64,000 nt of DNA from an uncultured Desulfosarcina sp. (GTDB lineage: Bacteria > Desulfobacterota > Desulfobacteria > Desulfobacterales > Desulfosarcinaceae). The notes under the pieces were generated by a model. The model did not search any database. It had not been told where the DNA came from and saw only the letters and a list, made by a program, of their open reading frames with translations. The DNA lies in NCBI GenBank assembly GCA_963674945.2, contig CAXXWQ010000003.1, positions 544,001 to 608,000 of the forward strand, written 5' to 3'. This document shows positions 22,173 to 44,261 of this stretch, one piece after another. Within the stretch, counting starts at the first letter, position 1; every line of letters begins with the position of its first letter. The position numbers and the translations under genes are program-made.

Positions 22173-22323
22173 AAATCCGGATATAGAAGGCCCGGCGTTG
22201 GACTCCGTGTGGAAGCAAGAATGCGCTGTAATCGGAGGGGAACAGAAGGAGTCAGAAGCCAAGTATTCAGCGCCGCCGCCGACCTTTGGCCGGCGGCGGC
22301 GCTGGATTCTGACTCCTGGATTC
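22170..22323. repeat. 3'-intergenic repeat with strong hairpin, copy 1 (copy 2 at 60934-61121)
   Basis: 37-nt block 32/37 identical to 60934-60970; AGGAGTCAGAA...TTCTGACTCCT inverted ends. Confidence 0.7.
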
Positions 22324-22548
22324 CCGAAAAAATTATGCGGCATCGCCACTTAGATCGGACCTGTCCCGGGGCAATAGGTTTTATGGACGGAATAAAAATA
22401 TCCATTACGCAGGCGCCACAATAAGAAATTAATTACACACCCATACGATTTCCAACCATATCTCCGACCCGCCACAGACGTTTCTATAAACTTGCAATTT
22501 CAGTACTTTTTCTTCATCACAGCAAAATACGTATAGAAAAAAATGCCG

Positions 22549-22564
22549 TGGCATGATTCATGCT
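22549..22564 (+). promoter_or_regulatory. sigma54 -24/-12 promoter
   Basis: TGGCATGATTCATGCT (GG-N10-GC). Confidence 0.65.
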
Positions 22565-22656
22565 TGATGAGATCGTCCATGGATACTGAAGAGGTTTAAA
22601 TAATTAGGATAAACGGTGATTATGGCAAAATTGCATAGATGGAACAGGAGACCTCG

Positions 22657-22845
22657 ATGAAGAAGAAGCCGCTATTTCCCAAGCATGCCACCTGTGTGAG
22701 TCAAACCGACTTCTTGCGCAATTTTCGTTGTCGACACTATGATTCCTGCATGGCAAAAGCCACCATTCAGAACTGTTTCCTAAGTTGTGTGCTTTGTGGG
22801 TTTCGATTTTATCGGGGGGGAGAAATTATTGAACCAGTCGTCTGA
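22657..22845 (+). CDS. small Cys-rich hypothetical protein (62 aa)
   Basis: AGGAG RBS, sigma54 promoter, C-x5-C...CxxC pattern. Confidence 0.6.
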   Translation: MKKKPLFPKHATCVSQTDFLRNFRCRHYDSCMAKATIQNCFLSCVLCGFRFYRGGEIIEPVV

Positions 22846-23410
22846 TCAAACCAAAGATCGATGATCGCCGTTTTTGCATAAACGTGTCGTCGGTATGTTT
22901 TGCAACGAGATCGGGTCTGCGCTCCAGAACCAAACGGGCCGCCATCTCGGTCGCCTGGGCCGTTAATTGGGCACATTGCCGGAAATGGGCCTTCCTGTCG
23001 TGCCGGACCTTCCGGGTGAGTGCCCGGCAGCAGGTGGCGCCATTGGCAACTTTGAATTCATCATGCAACCTTCTGGCGCTTTGGCGCATGGCGCTTCGGT
23101 GCCCATGACGATGCTCCTTTCCCAGTAACAGTCCGGAGGCCATTACAGCACCGCTCAATGCGCCACAAAGGCAACCGCTTTCGCCCATGGCGGCGCTAAA
23201 GGGTGCCGCCATGGCGATGGCCTGGGTATCGGTGAGCCCTCCGTCCAGGCCCTGGTTGATTGCCGACAGTACCGCTTCGGTGCAAAGCATCTGCTTGGTC
23301 TGATATAAGTGAAAGGCATGATCCCTGATACGACGAATCAGTTCTTCGGTCTTCTCCGGCAGCGCTTTTTCGTTGCCATTGATTGATCTTTTCACGGTAT
23401 GTCCATCCAT
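22826..23410 (-). CDS. C-GCAxxG-C-C family redox protein
   Basis: CTEAV, GCLCGALSGA, TCCRAL, QCAQL. Confidence 0.88.
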   Translation of the reverse strand: MDGHTVKRSINGNEKALPEKTEELIRRIRDHAFHLYQTKQMLCTEAVLSAINQGLDGGLTDTQAIAMAAPFSAAMGESGCLCGALSGAVMASGLLLGKEHRHGHRSAMRQSARRLHDEFKVANGATCCRALTRKVRHDRKAHFRQCAQLTAQATEMAARLVLERRPDLVAKHTDDTFMQKRRSSIFGLIRRLVQ

Positions 23411-23677
23411 TCGATGTTCAATTCCATATGAGCGAACAGCGCATTGCCAAAGGCTGACCGCCCGGATTGGATCACAATAACCATTTGTTCACCGTTGTCC
23501 ATGAACTTCGTACACTCCTCGGTGGCCACGGGGTTGCAGTCGCCCCACTGTTATAGAAAATATCCCGCCACGCTCGATTCCCCGGCATTCATCCACGCAT
23601 CCTCATCGTAAATGACGCCGCCCTATTTGCATAGATACTTTCAATAATAACGAATCAATCGATCCAAATAATCAATT

Positions 23678-23686
23678 TGATATAAT
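23678..23686 (+). promoter_or_regulatory. extended -10 promoter, probably for the yedE operon
   Basis: TGATATAAT (TGnTATAAT). Confidence 0.5.
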
Positions 23687-23732
23687 GCCAATAACTAAAG
23701 TAATTGATGAATTTGTAGGAAGCCGGATTTCG

Positions 23733-23858
23733 GACGGCTTCGTAAAAAGTTCGAGATCAAGGCTTGCGAGCCCTTAAGGAATGAGGCGTATGGTTGGATA
23801 CGTCGCAGTGACGAGGGGTGAAGCCTAACGCCGATATCGGACTTTTTACGAAGCCGTC
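23733..23858. mobile_element. MITE/REP-like element, copy 1 (copy 2 at 61675-61819)
   Basis: perfect 18-bp TIR GACGGCTTCGTAAAAAGT; interior similar to copy 2. Confidence 0.8.
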
Positions 23859-23977
23859 AAAGTAATTGAGTTCGGAATAATTGTGAACGATATGCAGCAT
23901 GCGGATCAGACCGTTGGCCGTCCCTTTTGTGTAAGGGCTAAAATTGAAGTGCAAATGGGAAAGGAGGACGTACGCGT

Positions 23978-25060
23978 ATGAAAAATTTTTTTGCCAGCCG
24001 CTGGGGTATCATCAGCGTCGGCGCGATTATCGGTATTCTGGCCGCTTTTTTACAGAAGTTGGGCAATCCCGGGAACATGGGCATCTGCGTAGCCTGTTTC
24101 GAACGCGACATTGCCGGCGCCCTGGGTCTGCACCGGGCCGCCGTGGTACAATACATCCGTCCTGAAATTATCGGGTTCGTAATCGGTTCGATGATCGCCG
24201 CCTATATGTTCAAGGAGTTCCGGCCCCGGGTGGGTTCGGCTCCCATCGTCCGCTTCATTCTGGGCGCCTTTGCCATGATCGGGGCACTGGTCTTTCTCGG
24301 ATGTCCATGGCGGGCGGTGTTGCGACTGGCCGGCGGAGACGGAAACGCCATCTTCGGGTTGCTGGGTCTGACCTTCGGCATCTGGATCGGCACACTTTTT
24401 CTTAAAAATGGCTACAACCTGGGCCGCACCCAGAGCACCCACACCACGGTGGGATGGATGCTGCCCTTGATCATGCTGGGTTTTCTGATTCTCATGCTGA
24501 TTTATCCCCAGATCGAGGGCCAAGATAAAAGCGGCGTTCTTTTTTACAGCCTCAAGGGACCCGGCGCCATGCACGCCCCGCTCATTATTGCCCTGATCGT
24601 GGGATTGGGTATCGGATTTCTGGCCCAGCGCAGCCGGTTCTGCACCATGGGCGCCATCCGGGATCTTGTATTGTTCGGCCAGATTCACCTGCTGACCGGA
24701 TTCATCAGCCTGGTGGTTTTCGCTTTCCTGACGAACCTGGCCCTGGGTCAGTTCCATCCGGGCTTTGCCGGTCAACCCGTGGCCCATACCATGCAAGTCT
24801 GGAACTTCTCCGGAATGGTCCTGGCCGGTCTGGCCTTCGCCCTTGCCGGCGGTTGCCCCGGCCGACAGTTGTTTCTCTCCGGTGAAGGCGACGGTGATGC
24901 CGCGGTATTTGTGATGGGCATGATCGTCGGAGCCGGGTTCGCCCACAATTTCGGGCTGGCCAGTTCTCCCAAGGGCGTCGGCCCCCATGGCATCGCCGCC
25001 GTGGTTGTCGGACTGGTCGTATGCCTGTTCATTGGATTTACCATGCGGAAAAAGGCGTAA
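23978..25060 (+). CDS. yedE: YedE/YeeE-family putative selenium/sulfur transporter
   Basis: GNPGNMGICVACFERDIAG, FLGCP, SRFCT, GGCP; multi-TM. Confidence 0.88.
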   Translation: MKNFFASRWGIISVGAIIGILAAFLQKLGNPGNMGICVACFERDIAGALGLHRAAVVQYIRPEIIGFVIGSMIAAYMFKEFRPRVGSAPIVRFILGAFAMIGALVFLGCPWRAVLRLAGGDGNAIFGLLGLTFGIWIGTLFLKNGYNLGRTQSTHTTVGWMLPLIMLGFLILMLIYPQIEGQDKSGVLFYSLKGPGAMHAPLIIALIVGLGIGFLAQRSRFCTMGAIRDLVLFGQIHLLTGFISLVVFAFLTNLALGQFHPGFAGQPVAHTMQVWNFSGMVLAGLAFALAGGCPGRQLFLSGEGDGDAAVFVMGMIVGAGFAHNFGLASSPKGVGPHGIAAVVVGLVVCLFIGFTMRKKA

Positions 25061-25071
25061 GGAGAATAATC

Positions 25072-25290
25072 ATGAGCACAACGATCGATGCACGCGGATT
25101 ATCGTGCCCGCAACCGGTACTGATGACCCTGGACGAGATCAAAAAGGGCAGTGAATCGGAAATCGTCGTCCTGGTGGACACGGACACCTCCAAGGAAAAT
25201 GTGTCCCGCGCCGCCCAAAGCCAGGGGTGCACCGTTACTAGCGTAGAGCCGGACGGCGATGGCTATCGGGTTCTGATTGCCAGGGCCTAA
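25072..25290 (+). CDS. TusA/SirA-family sulfur(selenium) carrier
   Basis: IDARGLSCPQP motif; AGGAG RBS. Confidence 0.9.
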   Translation: MSTTIDARGLSCPQPVLMTLDEIKKGSESEIVVLVDTDTSKENVSRAAQSQGCTVTSVEPDGDGYRVLIARA

Positions 25291-25326
25291 AACAGGCGTT
25301 TCACCTTTCTTGAGAAAAACTGTAAG

Positions 25327-25884
25327 ATGGGATTTTTCAATTTTTTAGATCGCACCATCAAAAAAACGAAACCGGCGGTGGTCCATCAGGAAGACCGGGG
25401 CTTTCTGGTATTTGAAAACACCAGCGAAGTCATCCAGGCCGAAAACCTGCTCAAACAGGAGGGATGGACCGTCCAGGTGATGGGACCACCGCCGGAGATC
25501 CACTCGGGATGCGATCTGGTGATCACCTTCCCCCTGATCGAGGAACTGAATATCCTGCGGCTGCTCGACAAAAACCGCCTTCCGCCCCTGTCGGTTGTAC
25601 CGGTCACCGGTCCATTGCTCGAACCGGTCGGCATTTACCAGGTCAAGGACTTCGGCGAATATCTTATGGTACGCGCGGCCAACATGAAGCTGGTGGTTGA
25701 GAAAAAAAACCGTAAAATTGTCAATGTTTCCGGCGGCGGCTGCCCGGATGTACCCTATCTGGCGCATAAGATGGTCGGCAAAACGATCGATGAAGCACCC
25801 CGACCCCGCGAGATCGGCCACACCCTGTGCGGCTATGCCCTGGAACTGGCGTTCGAGGAGATACTGGTTCGATGCGCGCCGTAG
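25327..25884 (+). CDS. DUF3343-domain protein with Cys-containing C-terminal extension
   Basis: FENTSEVIQAE..PPPEIHSGC; GGGCPDVP; TLCG. Confidence 0.75.
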   Translation: MGFFNFLDRTIKKTKPAVVHQEDRGFLVFENTSEVIQAENLLKQEGWTVQVMGPPPEIHSGCDLVITFPLIEELNILRLLDKNRLPPLSVVPVTGPLLEPVGIYQVKDFGEYLMVRAANMKLVVEKKNRKIVNVSGGGCPDVPYLAHKMVGKTIDEAPRPREIGHTLCGYALELAFEEILVRCAP

Positions 25885-26729
25885 TCGGAACCGTACCGTT
25901 CGAGGATTTTCCCCTCACCGTGGGCGAAGTTTCCCTCTCCGGCCAGGACCTGCACATCGGCGGACACACCATACCCGTCAACCGCGGCACGCCTGCCCTG
26001 CTGGCGGCAATGGTCCGGGCATTGGAAGTGATCGGCAACGGAAAGGTTACCGGTTTTCTCGTCGGAGACATCGGCCTGGGAAAGGGCAGCCGGCGACTGT
26101 ATGAAATGTTGGCCCGCGATCTGGGCGGATACGACCTTGAGAGTCTGACCTTCCACTACCTACAGCCGGATGTGGACTGGCACAATCGGGTACTCTTTGC
26201 TGTGGACGAAATGCCGCGGCGACCGCTGCTGATCGCCGACGCCGGGTTCATGTACGCGGCCAAGATGAGCGGTAGCGCACCCGAATACGATCTGTTTACG
26301 CCGGATGCGGGTGAGTTGGCCTTTCTGGCCGACGAAGCGGCCCCCCACCCTTTTTACACCCGCGGCTTCATTCTGCACGATGAAAACAAGGTCCCCGATC
26401 TGATTCGCCGGGCCTATTCACACGACAATGCGGCCCGCCATCTGCTGGTCAAGGGAGAAATCGACCGTTTGGCAGATCGTTCGGGCATTTTGAAAAGCGT
26501 CGACGGGCCGTCCGTGGACGCCATGGAAGCCATGGGCGGCACCGGCGACACGCTGACCGGGCTGGCCGCCGCGTTGATTGGTACCAACGGTCTTTCCCTG
26601 TCCGAAGCAGTCATCGCAGCGGCGCGGATTAACCGCGAGGCCGGCGCGTTGGCCAATTTGAGCCCGGCCAGCCAGGTCGCCGATCTGATCCGTTATTTTT
26701 CCCACGCCATGGAAAAAGTCCTGGGATAG
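25872..26729 (+). CDS. ribokinase-fold carbohydrate-kinase/NAD(P)HX-dehydratase-like protein
   Basis: LIADAG, FTPDAGE, LLVKG, GGTGD anion-hole motif. Confidence 0.75.
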   Translation: MRAVVGTVPFEDFPLTVGEVSLSGQDLHIGGHTIPVNRGTPALLAAMVRALEVIGNGKVTGFLVGDIGLGKGSRRLYEMLARDLGGYDLESLTFHYLQPDVDWHNRVLFAVDEMPRRPLLIADAGFMYAAKMSGSAPEYDLFTPDAGELAFLADEAAPHPFYTRGFILHDENKVPDLIRRAYSHDNAARHLLVKGEIDRLADRSGILKSVDGPSVDAMEAMGGTGDTLTGLAAALIGTNGLSLSEAVIAAARINREAGALANLSPASQVADLIRYFSHAMEKVLG

Positions 26730-26735
26730 TTTGCT

Positions 26736-28658
26736 TCACGATTTCGGTTGCCGCAACACGCGTTTATCGCCCCTTCGGGTGGTAAACCCGATTTCATCAA
26801 GGTAATCGAAAACATGAACACAACCCCATCGACCATACCCCAGAATGGCCTTGCAATCGGACAGTCTGACACACCCCTTTTCATGGATGAACTGCTCGAC
26901 ACGGTCCTTGATGTCGTCGAGAGCATCGAGGGACAGGAAACGCTGGTCATTGAGCCGGATCAACTTCTTCCGGTTGTCGAGGTAATTGAGAAGTTTTTGT
27001 ATCGTCTCTTTTTCGTGGATCCTGTTGTGTTTTTTCCAGAAGGTATCGGCGCTGAAGGGGTTCAGACCCGACACTTTGGCGAAGTCCAGCAATTGATTCA
27101 GCAGTTGATCCTGGTCCGCAGACAGGTTTGCCGCCCCTTGTCCGGGCACATACCCACCACCGATCTTCTCCAGTTTCCCCCCCAGACAAAGGGATTCCAC
27201 CAGTTGAACAAAGAGAAAATCGTCCATGGAGTCATCGAGCAGATTCATCAATTCGATCCGGTTGATGTTTTTTTTCAGCGGGTTTTCACGGAATACCGAT
27301 TCGATGACACGAAGCATTTTCTTTCTGATCCGCTCGAATTTCTCCTTTGGATAGGCTCCATGGCGCTTGAGGTAGACAAAAGCCCCGGACTGTACACGGG
27401 CACTGATCTGGACCTGGAACGCTTTCTGGGAAAGACCGGTTATTTGGGACAAGGTACGGGCATCGGTGTAGGTTTCGACGACCGCGTCGAAATAGGTGTC
27501 GACGAAGCCGGCGATGTCTCCGGTTCGAAGCGCCTCCAGATAAGGGAGGATACGCTGCTTCTTGGCCTGACGGAACTTTTCCGATGGAATTTCCAGTACC
27601 TTGCCACCGCCTAAGACCATGGGCAAATTCATGGCCACAATCACGAACCGGTCCCTTGGAAAAACAAAAAGCGGCCGTTGCAACCGAAACTGCGTCAGGG
27701 CCCGGTCACCGGGATCGAGCCGCGCCTTTTCCATGAGCACGACCATGGCGCCCACGACGGCAGTACCGATATACAGCTTCACCCGCTGTCGATTCTTGAG
27801 TCCGAAGACCGCAGATGGAATAAGGTGCAGGTCGACATTTAACAGGTAGCCACCCTCTCCTGCGTCCAAAGCGGCCACCAGCATTCCTCTTTTCAAGGAT
27901 CCGGCAGGCACATTGTGCAGATTCAAACCCACCCGCTGACCGGCAAAAACCTCTTTAACGGGCTGATTGTGGGATTCCATGGATCGGATCCGTGTAAAGA
28001 TCCTTCCGGGTTGAACCAACACCGTGTCGTTGACGGCAGCCGAACCCGAAGCCACGGTGCCGCTCACCACCGTCCCCAATCCAACGATGCGCTTGATGCG
28101 GTCGATCCAGAGCCGAAAGTCTCCGCCGCCATCTTTTTTCGGTAGCGATCGCACCTGTGCTTCCAGGAAGTCAAGAATTTCGGTGACACCTTGACCGGTC
28201 TTTGTGGAGAATCGAACAACGGGTCGACCATGGAGAAAAGAATCGGGGAGAATTTCCTGCAGTTCCAACTCAGCGAGGTCGAGTGTCTCCTCATCCACCA
28301 GATCGGCCTTGGTGAGGACGCAAACGCCTCCTCTGGCACCGAAAAACTTTAAAATTTCCAAATGCTCCCGGCTCTGGGGCATGACGCCGTCGTCGGCGGC
28401 GATCACGAAAATAGCCAGATCGACACCACTCAATCCGCGAATGGTATTTTTCAGATAATCGGTATGCCCGGGTACGTCCACCAGGGCGACCTGCCGTCCG
28501 CTGGGAAGAACCAGCGGCGCCACGCCGGACTCGATGGAGAGTCCACGCTCTTTTTCCACCTTCATGCGGTCGGTGTCGATGCCGCTCAGGGCCTTGACCA
28601 ACGATGTCTTTCCATGGTCGACGTGGCCGGCGACACCGATGGTGATTCCCTTTTCCAT
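26736..28658 (-). CDS. selB: selenocysteine-type elongation factor, divergent (SelB*-like)
   Basis: GHVDHGKT, DVPGH, TKAD, GQRV; C-terminal winged helices ending YLDEIGFTTRRGDKR. Confidence 0.9.
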   Translation of the reverse strand: MEKGITIGVAGHVDHGKTSLVKALSGIDTDRMKVEKERGLSIESGVAPLVLPSGRQVALVDVPGHTDYLKNTIRGLSGVDLAIFVIAADDGVMPQSREHLEILKFFGARGGVCVLTKADLVDEETLDLAELELQEILPDSFLHGRPVVRFSTKTGQGVTEILDFLEAQVRSLPKKDGGGDFRLWIDRIKRIVGLGTVVSGTVASGSAAVNDTVLVQPGRIFTRIRSMESHNQPVKEVFAGQRVGLNLHNVPAGSLKRGMLVAALDAGEGGYLLNVDLHLIPSAVFGLKNRQRVKLYIGTAVVGAMVVLMEKARLDPGDRALTQFRLQRPLFVFPRDRFVIVAMNLPMVLGGGKVLEIPSEKFRQAKKQRILPYLEALRTGDIAGFVDTYFDAVVETYTDARTLSQITGLSQKAFQVQISARVQSGAFVYLKRHGAYPKEKFERIRKKMLRVIESVFRENPLKKNINRIELMNLLDDSMDDFLFVQLVESLCLGGKLEKIGGGYVPGQGAANLSADQDQLLNQLLDFAKVSGLNPFSADTFWKKHNRIHEKETIQKLLNYLDNRKKLIRLNDQRFLSLDALDDIKDRVEQFIHEKGCVRLSDCKAILGYGRWGCVHVFDYLDEIGFTTRRGDKRVLRQPKS

Positions 28659-28701
28659 GATCGAAATCCTTACCGCTGGGTCATGACGTTTGTATTCGTG
28701 A

Positions 28702-28793
28702 TGGAAGGGGCAAGGGGAATCGAACCTCCTCCCCGCTTTTCAGACGAGGCCAGCGGTTTTGAAGACCGTGGGGTGCCCAGCACCATTGCCCCT
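28702..28793 (-). tRNA. selC: non-canonical UCA-anticodon tRNA, SelC*-type tRNA-Cys(UCA)
   Basis: 8-bp acceptor AGGGGCAA/UUGCCCCU, discriminator U, encoded CCA; loop CU-UCA-AA; long variable arm; T-stem GG(A)GG/CCCC with UUCGAUU loop. Confidence 0.88.
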
Positions 28794-29160
28794 ATATGGA
28801 ACCGATCCATTCGTTGATCAGGTATTTGGAACGTAAATTGTCTATCTTGCTTCTAAGGATATCATTCATTAATTGGAAATAGACTTCCAAGGAAGAAGTT
28901 CAGTAATACAAACGAAAAAAGGCTTTTTGTAAAACGCTTTTCCCTTGTAATCAATCGACAAAATAATGGAAGAATGAATTTCTTTCGCAATACTGCTTGG
29001 CCATGTTTGGACGGGAAAAGCTTTTTAAGAATTAAATTGAGATCATTGATTAGTCAAACAGTAAATATCTATACATACTCACTTTATCATCGAGAAAATA
29101 AATTTGACATTTCATCCAACTTGAGACATTGAAGTTAGAATTTTTTATTACCTGCAAAAA

Positions 29161-29481
29161 GGTTGATTCCATGCTGCGGCTTTTCGGCTTTACATGACGG
29201 TGCTCCGACTCGCTACCCGGGTTGGTGTGCACCGTAGGAGACTGAAAGGCCGTATTTTTGCGTTGTTCCCGCCTCGCGTCAACACCACATGATGGCGCCG
29301 AACTCACATCAATGCGAAAAACGGCACAAGATGAAACAATCCGTGGTCCTGAAGGCCCATAGGATCTCCCATCGTTGTACCGGTGTGGTCCGATCCCAAA
29401 AGGCAACCTGCGTCCGCGTATTAAAAAAAACGGCAACCGAAATTCGGTCAGCCCATTACGGATCGACGAAAGGAACGACCC
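29161..29481 (+). promoter_or_regulatory. structured leader with UGA-terminated uORFs and a SECIS-like hairpin
   Basis: uORFs 29171-29197, 29194-29292, 29289-29489; stems 29197-29235, 29249-29325, 29339-29463. Confidence 0.5.
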
Positions 29482-30813
29482 ATGAATGAAACAGAGGTAA
29501 TAAAAATTCAATCGAATCGAAAAAATGCTTTCATCGAAAAGGTCAAAGAGATTCTTCCCGATGGTGGGAACCTGAATCTGTGTCTCACCTGCGGAGCCTG
29601 TGCGGCGGGTTGCCCGGCCACCGGACTGGAGGGCATGGATCCCCGAAAATTCCTTCGGCTGGCGGCCCTGGGCCTGGATGAAGAGATCACCAAGCATCCC
29701 TGGGTGTGGATGTGTTCCATGTGTGCCCGTTGCACCTATGTCTGCCCCATGAGTATCAATATCTCAGGATTGATTTTCGAGGCACGGAAGTTATGGCCGC
29801 GGGAGGAACGGCCCAAAGGGATATTGGGATCCTGCGACATGGCGCTTCGCAACGAAAGCGGCAGTGCAATGGGAACGCCACCCGAGGATTTCACCTTTGT
29901 GGTGGAAGACGTACTCGAAGAAGTACGCGAGACCCAACCGGGCTGGGAAGATCTTCAGGCACCCCTCGAAAAGCAGGGTGCCCATTTCTTCGTCAGCCAG
30001 AACTCTCGGGAACCGGTAACGGAACCCGACGAGATGGTACCACTGTGGAAAATCTTCCACTTGGCAGGCATCGACTGGACTTACAGCAACCAGGCCTGGG
30101 GCGGCGAAAACTACTGCATGTTCCTGGCAGACGATGAGAACTGGAAAAGGGTCGCCAACAATACACTGAAACGGGCCGAAGAGCTGGGTTGTAAGGTTTA
30201 TTTGAATACCGAATGCGGCCACTCCACCTTTTCCGTGTGGGAAGCGAACAGACGCTACGGCATTGACTCTCCGCTGGAAATCGCCCCAATGGTGGCCTAT
30301 TACTATGAGTGGATCAAATCGGGAAAACTCAAAGTCAGTTCCGACTGGAACAAAGACCGGAAAATCAAGTTCACGGTCCAGGATCCCTGCAACCAGATCC
30401 GGAAGAGCTATGGGGACGAGCAGGCCGATAAGATGCGCTACGTGGTCAAGGCCTGCGTGGGAGAAGAAAACTTCGTGGAAATGTACCCCAACAAGTCCAA
30501 CAACTTCTGCTGCGGCGGCGGTGGCGGATATTTGCAGTCCGGCTACACCCAGGCGCGCCTTGCCTACGGAAAGATCAAATCCGACCAGATCATCACCACC
30601 GGCGCGGATTATTGCCTGACGCCCTGCCACAACTGCCATGCACAGATTCACGAACTGTCCCATCATTATGGTGGAAACTTTCAAGTCACCCATATGTGGA
30701 CGATCATCGCACTATCGCTTGGCATTCTGGCCGAAAACGAGAGAGAATATCTGGGAGACGATCTGAAGGATGTGTGGCTGCCCGGCGAACCGGGAACGCC
30801 GAGTCCATTTTAG
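29482..30813 (+). CDS. HdrD/GlpC-like Fe-S (CCG-domain) oxidoreductase
   Basis: CLTCGACAAGCP, CSMCARCTYVCP, NTECGH, QDPC, CCGGGG, PCHNC. Confidence 0.9.
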   Translation: MNETEVIKIQSNRKNAFIEKVKEILPDGGNLNLCLTCGACAAGCPATGLEGMDPRKFLRLAALGLDEEITKHPWVWMCSMCARCTYVCPMSINISGLIFEARKLWPREERPKGILGSCDMALRNESGSAMGTPPEDFTFVVEDVLEEVRETQPGWEDLQAPLEKQGAHFFVSQNSREPVTEPDEMVPLWKIFHLAGIDWTYSNQAWGGENYCMFLADDENWKRVANNTLKRAEELGCKVYLNTECGHSTFSVWEANRRYGIDSPLEIAPMVAYYYEWIKSGKLKVSSDWNKDRKIKFTVQDPCNQIRKSYGDEQADKMRYVVKACVGEENFVEMYPNKSNNFCCGGGGGYLQSGYTQARLAYGKIKSDQIITTGADYCLTPCHNCHAQIHELSHHYGGNFQVTHMWTIIALSLGILAENEREYLGDDLKDVWLPGEPGTPSPF

Positions 30814-30924
30814 CATTCAGCAATAGTATATCATCCAAAGGAGAAACCATGTCCCACCGGGGACATTAAACCGTCACCTTTCAGAGACATAGGCCGAGCG
30901 ATTGTCGAGCTTGCCACAGATGCT

Positions 30925-31437
30925 ATGATAGAAAACATACACGTAGATCCCAAACTGGAAAAATGTCTGACGGTATTGGAGAGGGGTGGCCGGCGTTCCT
31001 GTTTGGCCGCGGATCGGGTACGGTCGATCATCGCCGAACTCAAGCAGGGAGAAATGCCAACCCATGAAATATGTTCGTTCACCAAAAACGGAGAGGCCCG
31101 CATCAAAGGATGCCGGAAGTACGACCTTGGCGCCGGCTATCGTCTGGTCACATTGAAACGGGGAAACGACCTGTACCTGCTATACGCAGGAACCCACGAC
31201 GAGTGCGGTCGCTGGGTTGAGAACAATCGGGAACAATTGGCCTTGGAAATGATCGGTCAGCGCAGTACCACCATCAGGCGTACCACGGCGAAATGCGCTT
31301 CAAAGACAAGCTGCCGGGGTCTGCCGGATCAGGAACAGGAAGAGGAGGAGGATTGGATCCCCCCCCTGGATGATCAAGACCTTCGGATCATTTTTAAAGG
31401 ATTGATCCAAAGCGTCGGCGAAAAGTCCAACCAATGA
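30925..31437 (+). CDS. hypothetical protein with RelE/ParE-like motif
   Basis: KYDLGAGYRLV...LLYAGTHD; acidic C-terminus. Confidence 0.55.
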   Translation: MIENIHVDPKLEKCLTVLERGGRRSCLAADRVRSIIAELKQGEMPTHEICSFTKNGEARIKGCRKYDLGAGYRLVTLKRGNDLYLLYAGTHDECGRWVENNREQLALEMIGQRSTTIRRTTAKCASKTSCRGLPDQEQEEEEDWIPPLDDQDLRIIFKGLIQSVGEKSNQ

Positions 31438-31457
31438 GCTGCAATAAAGGAGAAAAA

Positions 31458-31772
31458 ATGATCAACGTCACTCAAGCCGCCATCGATGCATTAACCGACT
31501 ATTTCCGTACCGCCGAACGGAAACCGGTACGGATTTTTCTGACCCAGGGGTGTGGTGGCCAACGTCTGGCAATGGCCCTGGACGAAACCAAGGAAAGCGA
31601 TTCGGTGTGCACAGCCGGTGATCACCAGATCATCATGGACCGGACGCTTTTGGAGGAGGCGAAGCCCGTGGACGTGGATTATTCGGACATGGGGTTCAAG
31701 ATCGCCTCCAATCTCGAATTGGGCGGCGGTTGCCAAAGTTGCGGAACCGCCGGAAGCTGCTGTTCATCGTAA
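31458..31772 (+). CDS. IscA/HesB-like protein (Cys form)
   Basis: VTQAA, RIFLTQGCGG..LAMALDE, C-terminal GGCQSCG..GSCC; AGGAG RBS. Confidence 0.85.
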   Translation: MINVTQAAIDALTDYFRTAERKPVRIFLTQGCGGQRLAMALDETKESDSVCTAGDHQIIMDRTLLEEAKPVDVDYSDMGFKIASNLELGGGCQSCGTAGSCCSS

Positions 31773-31814
31773 AAAAGGCGACTTGACACCTTTTTTACGG
31801 AGGTTAAACAATAG

Positions 31815-31844
31815 ATCGAAAAGGCGCCTCGGCGCCTTTTCGAT
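31815..31844. terminator. bidirectional intrinsic terminator
   Basis: perfect inverted repeat ATCGAAAAGGCGCC-TC-GGCGCCTTTTCGAT. Confidence 0.75.
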
Positions 31845-32112
31845 TCGTTGACAACGCCGCCGAAGTTTGCTGATAGAAGCTCCGTTGAAGCCGATGGATA
31901 TGATCCGGGCATTACGAAAATGCCTCGTCACTTCACGTAACGTACCACAATCACCGATCACCTGCTCTACAGGGAATCGGTAATTTCCCCAGAGTTCATC
32001 CCATCCAATGTACCCCATATGAAAAACAAGCTCGTGGATTGATCAAAATGAAACGGACAGTACTAAGTTATTTTATAGGATACTCAACCTTATGGGAAAA
32101 AAGTGCAAACCG

Positions 32113-33372
32113 CTATTCGTGGCGTAATGCTTCGATTGGATCCAACCTGGCCGCCTGGCGGGCAGGGAAGTACCCGAACAGGACGCCCACGGCGGCGGAG
32201 AAGAGAAAAGCAATGATGGTAATTCCAAAATCGAAAACGAAGGGAACATCCAGCAGGTTGGCACCCATGACCGCCGCTGCCAACCCGAGCAGAATCCCCG
32301 CCAAGCCACCAAAGGCAGAGAGAACGACCGCCTCAATGAGAAATTGCAGTAGTACCTGGCGCGCCAGTGCACCGATGGCCAGACGGATCCCGATCTCTCG
32401 GGTTCGCTCGGTAACCGATACCAGCATGATGTTCATGATGCCGATACCGCCCACCAAAAGGCTGACGGCCGCCACTGCTCCCAATAATGCCGTGAGAACA
32501 CGGGTCGTGTCTGTCAGGGTACTCACGATCTCCTGCATGTCCCGCACGAAAAAGTCATCTTCTTTATTTCCCGTGATCTTTCGCCGCTGACGCATCAAAA
32601 GTTCGACATCTGTTTTGACCCTTTCCGTTTTTATCCTCTTTTCGTGAAGACCGGTGACTGGGACGCCGCCGGGGAGGATGGGGCAGGAGTTTTTGAATCA
32701 GGTTGCCGCCCTGTCTGGTGCCTGTTCGCCCATCGACCGGCGGAGTATAGCGGAAAGCGGCATTGGGGATCAGCAGGGTATTTTCCATCCGATGAACCGT
32801 GATTTCCGCCGTGGCCGTCATTCCAGGCCGCAGGGTCAAATCCGAATTGTCCACATCGAGTACAGTGGCATAGGTAACAACGCCATCAACGGTTTTGGCT
32901 CCATAGCGGACTTTGGTGACATGGGCTGGAAACGGCGATCCGAATAGGCATCCACAGTGAATTCAGCCGTCTGACCGGCACTGACGGCGCCTACGTCGGC
33001 CTCATCCACATCCACGATCAACTCCATGCGGGCAAGATCTTCGGCCAGGATGAAGAGTACCGGCGCCTGGAGGGATGCCACGGCAGCATCCAGATCGATC
33101 TGCGAAACGGCCTTGTTGCCGCTGATCTCGCGAAAACGGTTGAGCCGATCCACCTGGTTCCGGGCCTCATCGACAGTGGCTTGGGCCGACAGCACTTTGG
33201 ATTGCAACACCTTTGCCCTTAGTTTGGTGGTATCCAACACCGCCAGTGCCTGCCCCACCGTTACCCGATCGTTATAGTCCACTGCCACTTTCTCAACAAT
33301 TCCGGGGCTCGCTGCCCACATCCGCCTGATTGGTGGGTGCCAAATTGCCGGTGGCGGTGACCGTAACGATCA
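32113..33372 (-). pseudogene. eroded macA/macB-like efflux adaptor and ABC permease remnants
   Basis: MacB C-terminus GGIGIMNIMLVSVTERTREIG..DPIEALRHE without N-terminus; MacA pieces (VTATGNL..GSE, LRPGMTA) with frameshifts and deletions. Confidence 0.85.
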
Positions 33373-33778
33373 GAATCGTTGTTGTATATGAATGCAAGTG
33401 AGAAGTCTTATAGAATCGCGGTTCTTACTAAAGCATCGCTTCTAATGTCAATATGGTTTTCATGGGTAAGAACTTTTTTACGCCCTTGGCACGATATTTC
33501 TCAATCTGACGATCAATAAAAAGCATTCCGTGCCAGCGGAAAATTTTACTTGACTGAAATTCGATAATGAGTTAAAGACCACAATCTTTGTTGGGAATCG
33601 CCTTTCCAAATCTGGCGCCATGAAGGTGCCACGACCCGACAATCTACTCGTCAAAAACAATCCAGACTTATAATGTAGTGTTGCCAAGAAGGCGGACGCA
33701 AATCATGGCGAACCGGGATGCTGCCCGGTGTTGCTCGCCTTTATTTCCGGCAGTCGTGCCGTTTGTTGGGGAGATATT

Positions 33779-34564
33779 ATGCGTTTGAAAATACTTTTTG
33801 GCCTATGGATGATGGTTTTCTTTTTCCTGGGAACGTTGCCTTGTCCGGCCGAAGAGCCCGGCAAATCGGGATTGAAGCGGCAGGTCGAACGGTTGGTCGA
33901 CGAATCCGTCGACATTCGTCAGGCGACCCAAAAAGAGAGCGAACAATGGCGGGAGGAAAAGCAAGCGCTGATCGACCGGTACGAGCTTCTGGAGAAGGAG
34001 CTCGTGCAACTTACGGCCCAAGAGCGTCAATTGGCGGAGAAAAATTCCGCCTGCCGGCAACGTATCGCCGAGAAACAACGGCAATTGGAGAATTCGGAGA
34101 GAATCCAGTCCGAGATTGCGCCCCTGATCGACGCCCAGGTCGCCAAACTCAATCGCCACCTCACCACCGACCTGCCGTTCCTTCCCGATGAACGCCGCCA
34201 ACGGATCGATCGATTGGAAGCCCTGCGCCTGGATCCGGACATTGCCGCTGGTGAGAAATTCCGCAAGCTGATGGAAGCGCTTCTGGTGGAGGCCGAATAC
34301 GGAAACACGATCGAGGTGTACCAGCAAACCGTCGGCGTTGCCGGCAAGGAAATGCTGGTCAATGTGTTCCGCCTCGGCCGCATCGGGCTCTTCTTTCAAA
34401 CCCTGGACGGCAAAACCAGCGGCATCTTCGATGTGGCTTCCTCAAAATGGCAACCCCTGCCTCCTTCGACCAACCAGGTCATTTGCGCGGCGATGGACAT
34501 CGGATCGAAACGGCAGCCGGTGGAAATGCTGACCTTGCCGTTGGGAAGGATGCGCGTCCAATGA
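33779..34564 (+). CDS. DUF3450-family protein
   Basis: signal peptide, coiled coil, DLPFLPDER, EAEYG, LGRIGL. Confidence 0.85.
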   Translation: MRLKILFGLWMMVFFFLGTLPCPAEEPGKSGLKRQVERLVDESVDIRQATQKESEQWREEKQALIDRYELLEKELVQLTAQERQLAEKNSACRQRIAEKQRQLENSERIQSEIAPLIDAQVAKLNRHLTTDLPFLPDERRQRIDRLEALRLDPDIAAGEKFRKLMEALLVEAEYGNTIEVYQQTVGVAGKEMLVNVFRLGRIGLFFQTLDGKTSGIFDVASSKWQPLPPSTNQVICAAMDIGSKRQPVEMLTLPLGRMRVQ

Positions 34565-36000
34565 GACTCACCCGCTTATGTGAATCATCGGCCCTTGTTC
34601 TCACGTTCGTCCTGGCCTTTGCAACCCTTTGCCAGTCGCAGGATATGCGCGACATGCATATTCGGGCCAGGGAACAGCTTCTCGAAAAATCGGCTGCCGA
34701 GAAGCAGGCTGCGGTAGAGGAAGCGGCCCGGGGAAAGGCCCGCATAATCGACGACCGCACGCAACTGGAGCAGTCATTGAAGGATCTGGAGTCCCGGGTT
34801 CAGTCGGTGCATCGGAAAATCGAAGGGCTCGAAACCGAGGAAACGGCGCTCGAAACCGAGGAGACCGAGCTGAACCAAAAGATCGCCCTGACCGATAGTA
34901 TGGTCCGGGAAATGGTCGGTGTGATCCGGGTCACGGCCAAGGATATCGTCACCCTCATCGACGGCAACCTGCAAAGCGCCATCGCCGACAAGCCGATGGG
35001 AGTGCTACGGTCCATTGCCGGTCAGGCCCGTTTTCCGGGAATGGAAGAGATCGAGACCATGGTGGCCCAACTGTGGCGGGAGATTCGCGATGCCGGCAAC
35101 GTTTATCTTACCTCCGGGACCATCGTCGACCGAGGCGGCAACCGCAGCCGGGCGGACATTCTCGTTCTGGGCAACTTCACGGCGGCCTATCGCATCGGCG
35201 AGGAGGTCGGTTTTCTCAACTACTCGGCATCCGGTCATAACCTGTTCGCCCTTTCCAAGCTGCCCCCAAAGCGGATGCAGAAATCCTTGTTTACTTACAT
35301 GCATGGAAAAAGCGATGCCGTTCCCATGGACATCTCCCGTGGCGCAGCCCTCGGCCAGCTCACCCATTCCCTCAGCCTATGGCAGCAAATTCCCAAGGGC
35401 GGCCCCATCGTCTGGCCGATCCTGGCCATTTTGGCCCTGGCCGTCATGATCGTGATCGAACGGGTTATTTTCCTGCTGCGCAAGCGCCTGGATGCGGACG
35501 GCCTTACCGACCGCATCGCATCCCTGGCCAAGACCGGAGACTGGAAGAAATGCGCGGATATGTGCGCCCGCCAGGGCAAAAAGCCCGTGGCGCGGGTAGT
35601 GGCCGCCGGTCTGGCGTGCTTCCCGGAAATTCAGCGGGAAACCATGGAAAACGCCCTCCAGGAGGCGATTTTAAAGGAAATCCCGCCCATGGAGCGGTTT
35701 TTGTCCACCCTGGGCATGCTGGCCGCCATCGCCCCGCTGCTGGGTCTCTTGGGAACGGTGACCGGTATGATCGACACGTTTCATGTGATCACCCGGCACG
35801 GAACCGGCGATCCGCGGTTGATGTCGGGAGGCATATCCGAAGCCCTGGTGACCACCATGCTGGGACTCACCGTGGCGATTCCCATCATGCTTGCCCACAC
35901 CCTGCTTAGCCGGGCCGTGGACAAACGAATCGGCCAAATGGAAGAAAAGGCCGTGACCCTCGTCAATATCGTTGAAAAAAACAATGACGCCGGCAATTGA
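34561..36000 (+). CDS. MotA/TolQ/ExbB protein with N-terminal periplasmic coiled coil
   Basis: APLLGLLGTVTGMI, GGISEALVTT. Confidence 0.9.
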   Translation: MRLTRLCESSALVLTFVLAFATLCQSQDMRDMHIRAREQLLEKSAAEKQAAVEEAARGKARIIDDRTQLEQSLKDLESRVQSVHRKIEGLETEETALETEETELNQKIALTDSMVREMVGVIRVTAKDIVTLIDGNLQSAIADKPMGVLRSIAGQARFPGMEEIETMVAQLWREIRDAGNVYLTSGTIVDRGGNRSRADILVLGNFTAAYRIGEEVGFLNYSASGHNLFALSKLPPKRMQKSLFTYMHGKSDAVPMDISRGAALGQLTHSLSLWQQIPKGGPIVWPILAILALAVMIVIERVIFLLRKRLDADGLTDRIASLAKTGDWKKCADMCARQGKKPVARVVAAGLACFPEIQRETMENALQEAILKEIPPMERFLSTLGMLAAIAPLLGLLGTVTGMIDTFHVITRHGTGDPRLMSGGISEALVTTMLGLTVAIPIMLAHTLLSRAVDKRIGQMEEKAVTLVNIVEKNNDAGN

Positions 36001-36604
36001 TCTGATTCGCGAATGCTTCCTGAAACTGGAAGACTACCTGCAGACAGGCGGTGTGGTGATGCTGCCGCTGGTGGCGGTGAGTCTTGTCATGTGGCTGTTG
36101 ATCATGGATCGGGCCATCTTCTTCAGACGCATGTACCGCCGGAATATGAGCTATCGGACCGCCTGGTCCCACGTGCGGGAAAACCGGATGCCCGATCCCG
36201 AAAAATACAGTGGCGCCGTTTCGCTGCTGGTGGCGCGCTTCATACCGGCCCGCAGCGGCGAGCCGGTCCTGGATCGTTTTATTCTGGATGAAACGGTGAT
36301 GCTCTTACACCGCAGCCTTTCCGACTATCTGGCGTTGATCGGCGTGCTTGCCGCCATTGCCCCTCTTCTCGGTTTGCTGGGCACGGTGACCGGCATGATC
36401 GCCACCTTCGACGTACTTTCCGTATTCGGCACCGGCAACGCAAAGGCCATGGCCGGCGGTATTTCCGAGGCCCTGATCACCACCCAGACCGGGCTGCTGG
36501 TGGCCATCCCGGGACTTTATATGAAAGGGTTTCTGGAGCGCAGGGCACGTACATTGAAACAACGCATCCTTGCCGTGGGGCTTTTTCTGAGGAGGCAATT
36601 GTAA
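35984..36604 (+). CDS. exbB: ExbB/TolQ proton channel protein
   Basis: APLLGLLGTVTGMI, GGISEALITT. Confidence 0.9.
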   Translation: MTPAIDLIRECFLKLEDYLQTGGVVMLPLVAVSLVMWLLIMDRAIFFRRMYRRNMSYRTAWSHVRENRMPDPEKYSGAVSLLVARFIPARSGEPVLDRFILDETVMLLHRSLSDYLALIGVLAAIAPLLGLLGTVTGMIATFDVLSVFGTGNAKAMAGGISEALITTQTGLLVAIPGLYMKGFLERRARTLKQRILAVGLFLRRQL

Positions 36605-36605
36605 C

Positions 36606-37028
36606 ATGCTCAACATCACCGCCGGCCGACGCACCAAGCGAACTCCCGCCGAATTGAATATTGCCCCGTTGATCGACATGGTGTTCATTCTGCTGATTTT
36701 CTTTCTGGTCAATACCAGCTTCGTGAAAGAGACCGGCATCGAAGTGAGCCGTCCCACGGCCTCCACCGCGGCCAGCCAGTCCAAGGCCACGATCCTGATC
36801 GGTATCGATGCCGCAAATCGTATTTTCATCAACCGTCGCGAGGTGGATGTACGCGCTGTTCGGGCCAATGTGGAGCGTGCCCTGGCCGAAAATCCCGAAG
36901 GTGCCGTGGTGGTGGTGGCGGATAAGGCCAGCAGCACCGGCATTGCCATCCAGGTAATGGACGGCTGCCGCATCGCTGGCGCACAAAATGTCTCCCTGGC
37001 GGCGATGCTGCCCCAGGAGAACCGGTAA
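36606..37028 (+). CDS. exbD: ExbD/TolR
   Basis: NIAPLIDMVFILLIFF. Confidence 0.92.
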   Translation: MLNITAGRRTKRTPAELNIAPLIDMVFILLIFFLVNTSFVKETGIEVSRPTASTAASQSKATILIGIDAANRIFINRREVDVRAVRANVERALAENPEGAVVVVADKASSTGIAIQVMDGCRIAGAQNVSLAAMLPQENR

Positions 37029-37052
37029 CCATATGCAAAAATACCATCGGCT

Positions 37053-37751
37053 ATGAATCGTCATTCGGATACGACCGCCTATTTCGAAACCCAGATTCAC
37101 CGCAACTGGCTGACATGGCTGTGGGCCGTCCTGGGTGCGCTGACGTTGAATCTGGCGCTTTTTGCCGTCATGCCGCACCTTTTGCATCCGGTGAAAAACA
37201 GAGCGGTGTTCGATACGCTTGTTTCGCACATCAACGTGATCCGTATCAAACGGCCGGAAACGCCGGTAAAGCGCAACAACGAAAACCCCCCGGAACCGCC
37301 TCCCCCAAAGCGGCATTTGAATGAACCGCTGAATCGAAAACCCATTGCCGCGAAAATGACATTGCCTTTTTCCATCAATCCGCGTCTGCCCACGACGCCG
37401 AATGCCTTACACCTGCCGGTTCAATCGATGGAAGCACCGGACACGATGGATGCGGGCGGAATTTTTGCCGTCGGAGATTTGGATTCGCCCCTGACAGTGC
37501 TGGCCCGCATGCCTCCCATCTATCCCTTGAATGCCAAACACCGGGGTATCGAAGGATGGGTCCGCATCCGATTCATTGTAAACGAAGACGGCGGCGTGAC
37601 AGACATCGACGTAGTGGAGAGCGAACCGTCGGGCGTATTCGATCAGAGCGTGATTCGTTGTGTCTCCGGTTGGCGTTTTCGCCCGGGAACGGTAGAGGGC
37701 ATGGCAGTAAAAACCTGTGCCGAAACGACCATCCGGTTCACATTGGATTAA
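37053..37751 (+). CDS. tonB: energy transducer TonB
   Basis: N-terminal TM, Pro-rich spacer, YPLNAK..GIEG.V, WRFRPG. Confidence 0.9.
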   Translation: MNRHSDTTAYFETQIHRNWLTWLWAVLGALTLNLALFAVMPHLLHPVKNRAVFDTLVSHINVIRIKRPETPVKRNNENPPEPPPPKRHLNEPLNRKPIAAKMTLPFSINPRLPTTPNALHLPVQSMEAPDTMDAGGIFAVGDLDSPLTVLARMPPIYPLNAKHRGIEGWVRIRFIVNEDGGVTDIDVVESEPSGVFDQSVIRCVSGWRFRPGTVEGMAVKTCAETTIRFTLD

Positions 37752-37777
37752 ACGGTATTCAGTAAGGAGGTGCGGCG

Positions 37778-39145
37778 ATGCAACCAGCCGTACGAAGCCT
37801 GTCCGCTTTGCTTTTTTTGTTGTTCATCCTGCCTGATGTTTGGTTTTTCCCGACCTGTTGCCGGGCAGCGGAAAAAAGCGACATCCCCTTGCCGGCCAGG
37901 GTCGCGCTTTCCAAAGCCGGGGCCTTGATGAATCAAAAGGCCTATGACCGGGCGACGGAAATCCTGACCTCCTTTCGGGAGGCAGGCGGCGGTCCGCCGA
38001 CCCTGGGCGAACCGGACCCCAAGGGCCGCGGTCATGCCGAAATCCATTTCGCCCTTGGCACCTGCTATCTGTTTTTAGGCGACTACCGGCAAGCATCCGA
38101 CGAATTCGAAGTGGCCGTGAGAAAAAAACCGTCCCACACATCCGCCTGGCTCAACCTTGCCAAGGCACGGTATGAATGCACCCAGTATGACGAAGCGGCC
38201 CGGTGTTTTATTCTGGCCTATGAGAACTCTGAAAACGGCCGGCCGGAACACCTCTATTTCGGCGCGGCCGCCTATCTCATGGCCAAACAGCCCCAAGCGA
38301 GCATCGACCTGTTCGAACGGCTGATGGACCGTCATCCCGATGCCGTCCTGCCCGAGTGGCGCGAGACCTTTGTCCACGCACTTTTGACCACCGACCGCGC
38401 ACGCCGGGCCTTGCCGGAAATCCGGATACTGGCCGAGACGTACACGGGAGAGAAACAGATCCAGTGGCAGGAAATCCTTTTGCACCAATACATCCAGCTC
38501 GAAATGAGGGAAGCGGCCCTGGCATACGCCCAGACGCTCACCCGACAGTCGCCGACCGTGGCCAAGTGGTGGGAAGCGCTTGCCCACGTCCGGTTGCAGG
38601 ATAGCAACTATCGTCAGGCGCTGGTCGCATTGACCGTATGCGGCTACCTGAAACCGCTTAGCGCCCGCGAGAAAAAGTTGCTCGCGGATCTCAATTTGCA
38701 ACTTGGAATTCCCATCCAAGCCGTCCGGCTGTACGAAAATGCGCTGGCTGAAAAATCCGATGCACGGATGCTTCACAATCTGATGCTGGCCTTGCAGCAG
38801 ATGGGAGAACCCCAAAAGGCACTTGCGGTATTGGAACGGTTCGCACCCCAGAGCCGGGACCCGGACCTGCTCATGGCCAAAGCCGACCTGCTGTACGGCA
38901 TGAAACGATTCAAGGATGCACAGCGAATTTACCACGAAATTGCCATAGACGATTCGGAAAAAGCATCGTTCACGGGGCGCGCCTGGCTGATGGCCGGCTA
39001 TGCGGCGCTGCAGGCCAATGACCCCGATGCGGGCCGACGGGCGTTCATGCATGCGGCGGACTATAAGCCGCATCGCCGGGCGGCCCTTGCGGCCATCAAA
39101 CAGATTCCCAATACCCGGAAACGCGTCGGACATTCGTCGTTATAG
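37778..39145 (+). CDS. exported TPR protein
   Basis: signal peptide, repeated TPR-like helices. Confidence 0.8.
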   Translation: MQPAVRSLSALLFLLFILPDVWFFPTCCRAAEKSDIPLPARVALSKAGALMNQKAYDRATEILTSFREAGGGPPTLGEPDPKGRGHAEIHFALGTCYLFLGDYRQASDEFEVAVRKKPSHTSAWLNLAKARYECTQYDEAARCFILAYENSENGRPEHLYFGAAAYLMAKQPQASIDLFERLMDRHPDAVLPEWRETFVHALLTTDRARRALPEIRILAETYTGEKQIQWQEILLHQYIQLEMREAALAYAQTLTRQSPTVAKWWEALAHVRLQDSNYRQALVALTVCGYLKPLSAREKKLLADLNLQLGIPIQAVRLYENALAEKSDARMLHNLMLALQQMGEPQKALAVLERFAPQSRDPDLLMAKADLLYGMKRFKDAQRIYHEIAIDDSEKASFTGRAWLMAGYAALQANDPDAGRRAFMHAADYKPHRRAALAAIKQIPNTRKRVGHSSL

Positions 39146-39352
39146 GGACCGGTCGTATGGAAAAGAATAGTAAAAAGCAAGCAACCGCATCCCGGCCAGG
39201 AGACGGCGGCTGCTTGCATGGTTGAAGCCCCGGTTACCGGGGAGCTTCGGAATGGATTTTACCATCCGACTCCCCGCCGCGTCAATTCGAGATGCACACC
39301 GGCTTATGACAATTGTTGAAACGGATCATGACAGCAAAGGGAGAAAGTGGAG

Positions 39353-41449: not shown

Positions 41450-41454
41450 TCGTA

Positions 41455-41487
41455 GCCCCGTTCCCGCACAGACCGTGGGAACGGGGC
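41455..41487 (+). terminator. strong intergenic hairpin (partial terminator or mRNA stabiliser)
   Basis: GCCCCGTTCCC...GGGAACGGGGC; weak U tract. Confidence 0.55.
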
Positions 41488-41511
41488 AGTTTAATATAGG
41501 AGAAGAGTAAC

Positions 41512-43188: not shown

Positions 43189-43189
43189 A

Positions 43190-43363: not shown

Positions 43364-43383
43364 ATATGAAAAGGAGAATTGAA

Positions 43384-44223: not shown

Positions 44224-44261
44224 TATCGTCCAACACACCCTCACAGGGTAAGTCACTGCAT

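Follow-up and report, generated by a model that had tools for sequence, protein, structure and literature searches.

The DNA analysed here, a window of 64,000 nucleotides from an uncultured Desulfosarcina sp., contains a leader of about 170 nt (29156–29325) flanked by a divergent tRNA(UCA)–selB pair and by a gene for an HdrD-like Fe–S protein. The element consists of a ribosome-binding site, an eight-codon upstream open reading frame (uORF; MLRLFGFT) with UGA as its stop, a SECIS-type hairpin that places GGG at +25 to +27, and two mutually exclusive helices. Also nearby in the window are yedE, tusA/yedF-like and DUF3343 genes, which the relevant passages of a review class as predicted selenium-metabolism genes (PMC9312934). 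An Rfam search of 22000–34000 returned only the neighbouring tRNA among matches up to E 5 and left the leader without an Rfam family. The Shine–Dalgarno (SD)-like site of the uORF (29156–29162, plus strand) pairs with the anti-SD sequence; the family median is −4.3 kcal/mol at this site, as against −0.2 farther upstream. A −35-like hexamer, TTGACA (29104–29109, plus strand), 67 nt 5′ of the AUG, marks a putative promoter. The hexamer is conserved at 10 of the 11 genus loci, and TTGAYW occurs at −65 to −69 in 43/140 family members (a raw count without a control); a scan with a promoter consensus did not list it. At 28880–29035 lies an intergenic repeat of ~120–150 nt with 78 BLAST matches (E < 1e-3) on all four contigs. 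It is bounded by an inverted pair, AAAAAGC-TTTTCC and GGAAAAGCTTTTT, and by its look may be a small non-autonomous mobile or REP-like element; it has no Rfam match. Elsewhere in the window, 33728–45110 carries genes that we labelled from their translations as TonB/ExbBD, a TonB-dependent receptor and several tetrapyrrole-methylase-like ORFs, unlinked to the leader.

The putative first regulated gene (29482–30813, plus strand) encodes the HdrD-like Fe–S/CCG protein (Pfam Fer4_8 and CCG) in its Cys form: the TGC codon at 30214–30216 is TGA in three paralogs of this genome. A 170-aa ORF follows (30925–31437, plus strand), which recurs behind the leader and is the first recognised gene in 10/125 cases. 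It had no match in Pfam or NCBIfam, and its KYDLGxGYRL motif may point to RelE-like folds. The next gene (31434–31772, plus strand) encodes the Cys form of a HesB-like protein (NF038090, above cut-off), whose paralog at C4:1268055 has TGA at the Cys site.

On the other side of the leader, the divergent tRNA (28702–28793, minus strand; ARAGORN and Rfam) has a UCA anticodon, A1:U72 and U73, and directly behind it lies a second selB, here selB* (26736–28658, minus strand; TIGR00475), which shares 32% identity with its counterpart, the selB at C3:439040. The main text of the work on selC* and SelB* gives A1:U72 and U73 as marks of selC* tRNA-Cys, which reads UGA as Cys (PMC5389517), and the locus resembles that system in the anticodon, in both of these marks and in the second selB directly behind. 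The neighbouring tRNA shows the features by which selC* is recognised: U73, a UCA anticodon (GCA being the other accepted one), selB* downstream and a canonical selC also present, this genome carrying both canonical selC and canonical selB. No leader is mentioned in that account, in whose main text the term 'leader' occurs 0 times (PMC5389517). A second cysS-like gene lies in a 763-aa frame at C1:209660–211018 of this genome.

We collected 141 non-redundant copies of the leader in Desulfobacterota (<90% identity; a few weak ones were kept in). In a DNA search of 101 genomes, 29158–29262 was matched in 10/30 genomes of the same genus, and three other matches were short and due to chance. All 11 genus loci read M-x-R-(L/F)-F-G-F-T-UGA before the same gene. 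A GTDB pattern search gave at least 118 stretches, which among the matches listed fell mostly in Desulfobacterales, Desulfarculales, Syntrophales and Desulfobaccales; there were 148 distinct pattern matches, from which 24 without a start codon were dropped. Neither a start codon nor P1, the helix described below, was present in the pattern matches beyond Desulfobacterota (Desulfotomaculum, Chloroflexota and others), and two of these that were tested went unconfirmed by the leader model. This model (R2) matched 51/151 genomes of the order, 8/151 of a draw from the phylum and 0/139 of the Desulfotomaculum class (Bacillota), a class in which there was no positive control. Among 52 model matches examined, 48 parse as a uORF ending in UGA; by eye, the remaining four comprise two in which the frame that ends in UGA is longer or did not parse, one with UGG and one with neither. 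The UGG copy (L315; G076:C104:61305) is leader-like without a clear SECIS and is possibly a decayed or repurposed switch. Because selA is present in 149/151 genomes of the order, co-occurrence with the Sec trait is uninformative. One genome (G205) yielded four leaders but no match to selA, yet it carries tRNA-Sec and a TGA-form paralog, and its lack of selA is probably an assembly gap.

The sensor uORF (29171–29197, plus strand) is most constant at its 3′ end. Gly at −3 (140/141), Phe at −2 (138/141) and Thr at −1 (137/141) are nearly invariant, although these counts are partly built into the search patterns, whereas positions −5 to −7 vary. Among the leaders found by the model, Thr stands at −1 in 45/48, with all four Thr codons in use. 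Of the 25 members in which a Thr codon would be unable to pair with the SECIS arm, 24 still have ACN, which rules out that it is conserved merely for pairing with that arm; together with the use of all four codons, this argues that Thr is conserved as a residue. The UGA itself (29195–29197, plus strand) is the predicted selenocysteine codon. In a blind scan of metagenomes, with a pattern that left AUG and UGA open, 24/87 stretches (some of them duplicates) had TGA, and 22 of these 24 had AUG eight codons upstream, where none of the 63 stretches without TGA did; all 22 stretches with this AUG had UGA, which ties the two together.

The ending F-x-x-T-UGA occurs in 124/141 leaders but in only 3/1640 long TGA-ending frames of this genome. 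The relevant passage of PMC7246954, from which alone we take the motif, cites WILFXXT-stop as stalling termination in E. coli; the leaders contain its F-x-x-T-stop part, and the upstream WIL is unmatched. The same source describes Thr as a residue that bacteria avoid before stops and reports that expression in Mycoplasma, the single organism assayed, was unaffected by a C-terminal Thr (PMC7246954). If the UGA is read through, translation would end in this copy at 29243–29245 (plus strand), 16 codons on. Across the family the read-through frame ends after 9–28 codons in 116/141 members, compared with 60 and 51 in the other frames; 53 of these 116 stops lie at 10 codons, mostly as the UAG that the SECIS arm contains, and may be by-products.

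Downstream of the UGA, the upper stem GCUACC-[CGGGUU]-GGUG-U-GC (29212–29230, plus strand) can fold as a SECIS-type hairpin. In 103 sequences the stem is 94.2% paired with two-sided changes in 3/5 pairs, and the first loop G is at +25 or +26 in 81/101 members. The spacing matches that of the hairpins in the Sec genes of this genome. In bacterial SECIS elements the first or second nucleotide of the loop is a G (PMC13582414), and the leader has both the stem–loop 3′ of UGA and this loop G. The stem is weak, with at least three pairs in 121/138 members in a tight window, against 40/116 in a wider one. We regard the hairpin as a predicted SECIS and a candidate SelB-binding site that would direct Sec insertion. 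The SECIS-like hairpin of the initial annotation holds up as a conserved feature, in a different register from the one drawn; the worry voiced there that the apical loop sits too close to the UGA falls away, since the conserved register places its G-rich loop at the usual distance. The hairpin originally drawn at the UGA, a two-tier fold (29197–29235, plus strand), does exceed chance in this copy (z −3.3, 0/200 shuffles) and is the stronger of the two, at −23.1 kcal/mol against −5.1 for the SECIS register. It is a genus-level alternative fold, 84% paired in the genus with no two-sided change (212/500 shuffles). In the computed folds of this copy it hides the SECIS unless the first ~16 nt are masked (pair probability 0.21), and this predicted competition is a real caveat for SECIS availability here.

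The most conserved helix of the leader, absent from the initial annotation, is P1, in which the uORF coding strand (region 1, 29177–29190, plus strand) pairs with 29239–29252. The latter belongs to a switch strand (region 2, 29239–29265, plus strand) that, in folds computed with the UGA free or covered by a ribosome footprint, pairs either with region 1 or with region 3 (29310–29325, plus strand) to form the alternative helix P2; the two helices overlap on region 2 at GCCGUA. P1 is 90.6% paired in 103 sequences, with two-sided changes in 6/12 pairs, and 95.5% paired in the genus. The covariation alignment comprised 103 of 124 sequences, and the 3′ strands lay outside the search patterns. The initial annotation had proposed aligning orthologous leaders for a conserved UGA and covarying stems, and both appear: the position of the UGA is conserved, and P1 and the SECIS stem together are 91.7% paired against 87.8% in shuffles (0/500), with two-sided changes in 9/17 pairs. 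With the register slid as a control, pairing reached at most 58.7%. P1 is predicted to extend over the SD and AUG of the uORF in this copy, but such an extension found no support as a family-wide feature (43/99, p 0.64).

The 3′ segment of P2 lies near +84 to +125. A member's own partner beat shuffled ones in 71/99 cases, with two controls at chance, and beat the segments of other members in 69/99. The genus form of P2, which includes the 16-bp stem (29249–29325) noted initially, was better than shuffled in 14/17, and in this copy that stem exceeds chance (z −3.7, 0/200 shuffles); the pairing is GCCGU:ACGGC here and GCCGC:GCGGC in relatives. The helix frequently takes over the 3′ arm of the SECIS. 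With a ribosome masking the UGA, P2 is predicted in 116/141 members, whereas equilibrium folds switch cleanly in 60/141 and P2 forms ribosome-free in 61/141. A further stem proposed at 29339–29463 can be drawn in the sequence but is at chance level (z −0.9, 37/200 shuffles) and absent from the centroid. The leader thus has the parts that define leader-peptide attenuators, namely a translatable uORF with a sensor codon, linked genes downstream and exclusive helices.

The first recognised genes of 125 leaders, assigned to classes by motifs with 30 checked, are HdrD-like (31), double-cubane reductase (14), MvhD (12), YedE (11), SelB* (10), the 170-aa ORF (10), Fdh-like (7), HdrA (7), YedF (3), SelD (2), MauE/rhodanese (1) and other (17). 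Behind leaders, HdrD-like proteins were in the Cys form in 36/36 cases and FdhA in 6/6, and SelD was in the Sec form in 8/8, which counts against the switch proposed below. MvhD (27) and HdrA (13) were also all Cys by motif count and were left out of this evidence, as the positions concerned are only potential Sec sites here. In a hand tally of the matches listed (150 of 250 HdrD-like copies in the order), taking 6.5 kb upstream and counting two leaders that surfaced once filters were switched off (E 0.02 and 0.08), a leader lay upstream of 26/31 Cys copies and 0/119 TGA-containing copies, a comparison that represents fewer independent events because the Cys copies are largely kin. Of the other five Cys copies among these matches, two lie at contig ends, and three show no leader despite long upstream sequence (G065, G147 and G080). 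With filters off, no leader appeared at the 13 TGA-containing copies that were checked as NTE-U-GH.

Behind 15/141 leaders the first gene encodes a selC*-type tRNA, 112–246 nt after the UGA, which places the output at the RNA level. The sequences and gene contexts place the leader before Cys backup enzymes, genes of selenium supply and the selC*/selB* pair, which inserts Cys. The original reading of a UGA-ending uORF with a SECIS-like hairpin before Cys-form genes is borne out by family conservation and gene context, and the direction assigned to it, on in selenium shortage, agrees with the target genes.

The initial annotation had further proposed a translational relay in which uORF1, uORF2, uORF3 and the HdrD-like gene are coupled and read-through of the UGA breaks the chain. 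Its parts are all in the sequence of this copy: AAAAGG, uORF1 (29171–29197), uORF2 (29194–29292), uORF3 (29289–29489), the ACATGAyGGyGC junctions, the TGA at 29243 and the hairpins. Its own caution that ATGA overlaps arise by chance proved apt, as ATGA is automatic, and so incidental, when ACA or AGA precedes TGA, and is found in 27/141 members. The chain reaches a long ORF in just 2/141, uORF2 varies from 4 to 107 aa, the first gene is far downstream, and translational coupling cannot control a tRNA, the first gene in 15 members. We consider the relay highly improbable. No more credible is that the uORF yields a small selenopeptide that acts on its own account, regulation being incidental. 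The UGA and SECIS would yield a product of 19–37 residues, but the residues after the UGA are conserved neither in sequence nor in length, five predicted read-through products had no match in NCBIfam, and both P1 and P2 covary.

The conserved leader and its gene context make it very probable that this is a Sec-sensing switch that is on when selenium is short, and we propose that it is likely a transcription attenuator that senses selenocysteine supply and drives backup and selenium-supply genes. When Sec-tRNA is scarce, a ribosome would dwell with the UGA in its A site, helped by F-x-x-T-stop. By covering region 1 it would let P2 form, which would cage part of a C/U tract and often invade the 3′ arm of the SECIS, and transcription would go on. 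When SelB delivers Sec-tRNA, the ribosome would advance to the second stop 10–28 codons on, blocking P2 and freeing region 1; P1 would then form, covering the start of the uORF and leaving the C/U tract open for Rho to terminate transcription. The assignment of P2 as ON and P1 as OFF follows from this geometry, with a ribosome at the UGA giving P2 and one at the second stop giving P1, together with targets that call for ON in shortage. The earlier formula that termination turns the genes on keeps the right direction but is too simple: the model requires the ribosome to dwell at the UGA, because fast termination would free the uORF strand. Such a dwell without Sec-tRNA is plausible given the F-x-x-T ending and the precedent of PepNL. 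In leaders that precede selC*/selB*, a feedback loop would arise from the insertion of Cys at the leader's UGA. The exact wiring of stall, P2 and Rho has, as modelled, slightly better than even standing.

The C/U tract of this model is a pyrimidine-rich, G-poor stretch (29255–29315, plus strand; C 0.33, G 0.20) that we regard as a candidate Rho loading site on the basis of its composition. In the family, +60 to +120 has C 0.28, U 0.35 and G 0.15, as against 0.24/0.25/0.25 farther on. Locking P1 exposes more C/U sequence in 116/141 members, a modest gain (42.0 against 36.5 nt; 0.54 against 0.51 without locking P1). A rho gene is present in this genome; a second, rho-like gene (C2:556881–557972) falls under the family cut-off. 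An intrinsic terminator of the trp/his type, in P2 or downstream, found no support: terminators behind the leader were not in excess (23 against 28 of 101) and no overall U tract follows P2 (2.45 against 2.13 U per 8 nt).

Three other accounts share much of this evidence. The timing could be reversed, so that without selenium RF2 frees the ribosome fast and P1 is the ON state, while slow Sec decoding makes P2 a pause or termination signal. In its favour, Sec decoding in the E. coli results drawn on from PMC4513850 is slow and shields the UGA from RF2, which acts where Sec fails, and a few P2 ends are indeed followed by 4 U. However, the U counts given above show no tract after P2 overall, a read-through ribosome would collide with P2, and the Thr-stop ending would be left unexplained; we hold this account to be unlikely, if the most serious of the alternatives. 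Somewhat less probable is that Sec is sensed as we propose and that the output is RNA cleavage or decay or a Rho-independent stop. We infer Rho just from base composition and the lack of intrinsic terminators, which leaves room for such an output, but the excess of C over G directly behind P1, fading by +140, fits a Rho site, and leaders of the mgtA/corA type use Rho in the systems described in PMC12360218. The fold might instead be fixed by SelB–GTP–Sec-tRNA bound to the SECIS, protecting the arm that P2 invades, with translation of the uORF secondary, in the manner of the SECIS-like element of E. coli selAB. The frequent pairing of P2 with the 3′ arm and a stem weak enough to need a protein are in keeping with this, but a binding switch has no need of a conserved SD, AUG, eight-codon frame, canonically spaced UGA or Thr, and it seems improbable.

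On the attenuator reading, the leader works like a uORF attenuator, and the new part is the sensor, a recoded stop. In the Rho-dependent leaders of mgtL/mgtA, corL/corA, cruR, tnaC and speFL, as described in parts of a review (PMC12360218), the position of a uORF ribosome likewise picks the fold of the leader, and stalling gives a termination-resistant fold that turns uptake genes on in shortage. Here, by contrast, the sensed event is stop-codon recoding through SECIS and SelB, with the stall at the sensor codon; none of the attenuators listed in those parts involves selenium, and 'selen' occurs 0 times in the review (PMC12360218). As in trp/his attenuation, a leader ribosome reads charged-tRNA supply and chooses between helices 1:2 and 2:3, and stop-codon occupancy is described there as shifting the outcome (PMC5373646, in the passages concerned). 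PepNL of E. coli arrests at a UGA stop and is relieved by read-through, but its 14-aa frame has no SECIS and is read through by near-cognate Trp-tRNA; we liken the two by mechanism (PMC11890864, in the part that bears on this arrest). Unlike trp/his leaders, the present one has one UGA and no run of sense codons, and no 3:4 intrinsic terminator was found. In E. coli selAB, a SECIS-like element binds SelB and represses translation, without a uORF.

The closest physiology is that of Methanococcus, in which Cys backups and scavenging genes rise in selenium shortage; the regulator, HrsM, is a LysR repressor acting on DNA, whereas the predicted sensor here is mRNA (PMC11097638, in the relevant sections). 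In Treponema primitia, UGA/SECIS decoding also affects expression through fdhF-Sec polarity, but inside the selenoprotein gene and with expression off in shortage, according to the portion of PMC3892789 that treats it. The literature covered, which lay outside subscription journals and supplements (those of PMC5389517 show selC* loci), described no Sec-codon leader as far as we found; the term 'leader' is absent from PMC13582414, PMC3892789, PMC11097638 and PMC9312934 and has one unrelated use in PMC8124441. It is probable, if only a little more so than the exact wiring, that this is a natural selenocysteine attenuator, regulon-wide in sulfate reducers. In it, the competition of SelB with RF2 would be converted into a choice of fold by the SECIS together with a termination-stalling F-x-x-T-UGA peptide, and control would extend to Cys backup enzymes, selenium uptake and the UGA-to-Cys tRNA/SelB* pair, with feedback on the leader's codon.

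Even for Methanococcus, the best-studied case of selenium-dependent switching between Sec and Cys enzymes, the sections concerned state that the means of sensing is unknown (PMC11097638). The element, which also occurs in records titled Desulfosarcina alkanivorans, D. cetonica, Dethiosulfatarculus sandiegensis and Desulfobacter curvatus, offers a directly testable sensor of ~170 nt in cultured sulfate reducers. If the model is right, attenuation would gain the 21st amino acid and a stop codon among its signals, the occasions on which Cys recoding by selC*/SelB* is used would be explained, and the switch would change how the cell reads the genetic code, with feedback on the leader's codon. The leader may also be useful for reporting Sec-tRNA supply genetically, and its targets form a list of candidate selenium uptake and scavenging genes.

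This genome (G000) carries four intact copies of the leader and one without a start codon. Behind the three other intact copies (C4:1215220, minus; C4:605767, plus; C4:613595, minus) lie URO-D-like methyltransferases, a corrinoid-protein-like ORF, a double-cubane reductase and transporters, the corrinoid-protein and transporter labels being our reading of the sequences. Further genes behind them are TonB-receptor-like, a nifH/nifDK-like run and ABC-transporter-like; together these genes are candidate selenium-scavenging routes (compare the use of dimethylselenide in Methanococcus). The degenerate fifth copy (C4:2664250–2664400, minus) keeps GFT-UGA and the SECIS, has no in-frame AUG, and precedes a second Cys-form HdrD-like gene and an hdrA–mvhD–hdrA cluster. 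An unnamed protein family without a Pfam or NCBIfam match lies behind the leader at L184 (449–1120), L244 and L183. Elsewhere in the family, divergent pairs of leaders occur a few hundred bases apart, each directed at an operon of its own (L288, L289, L296, L290 and L322).
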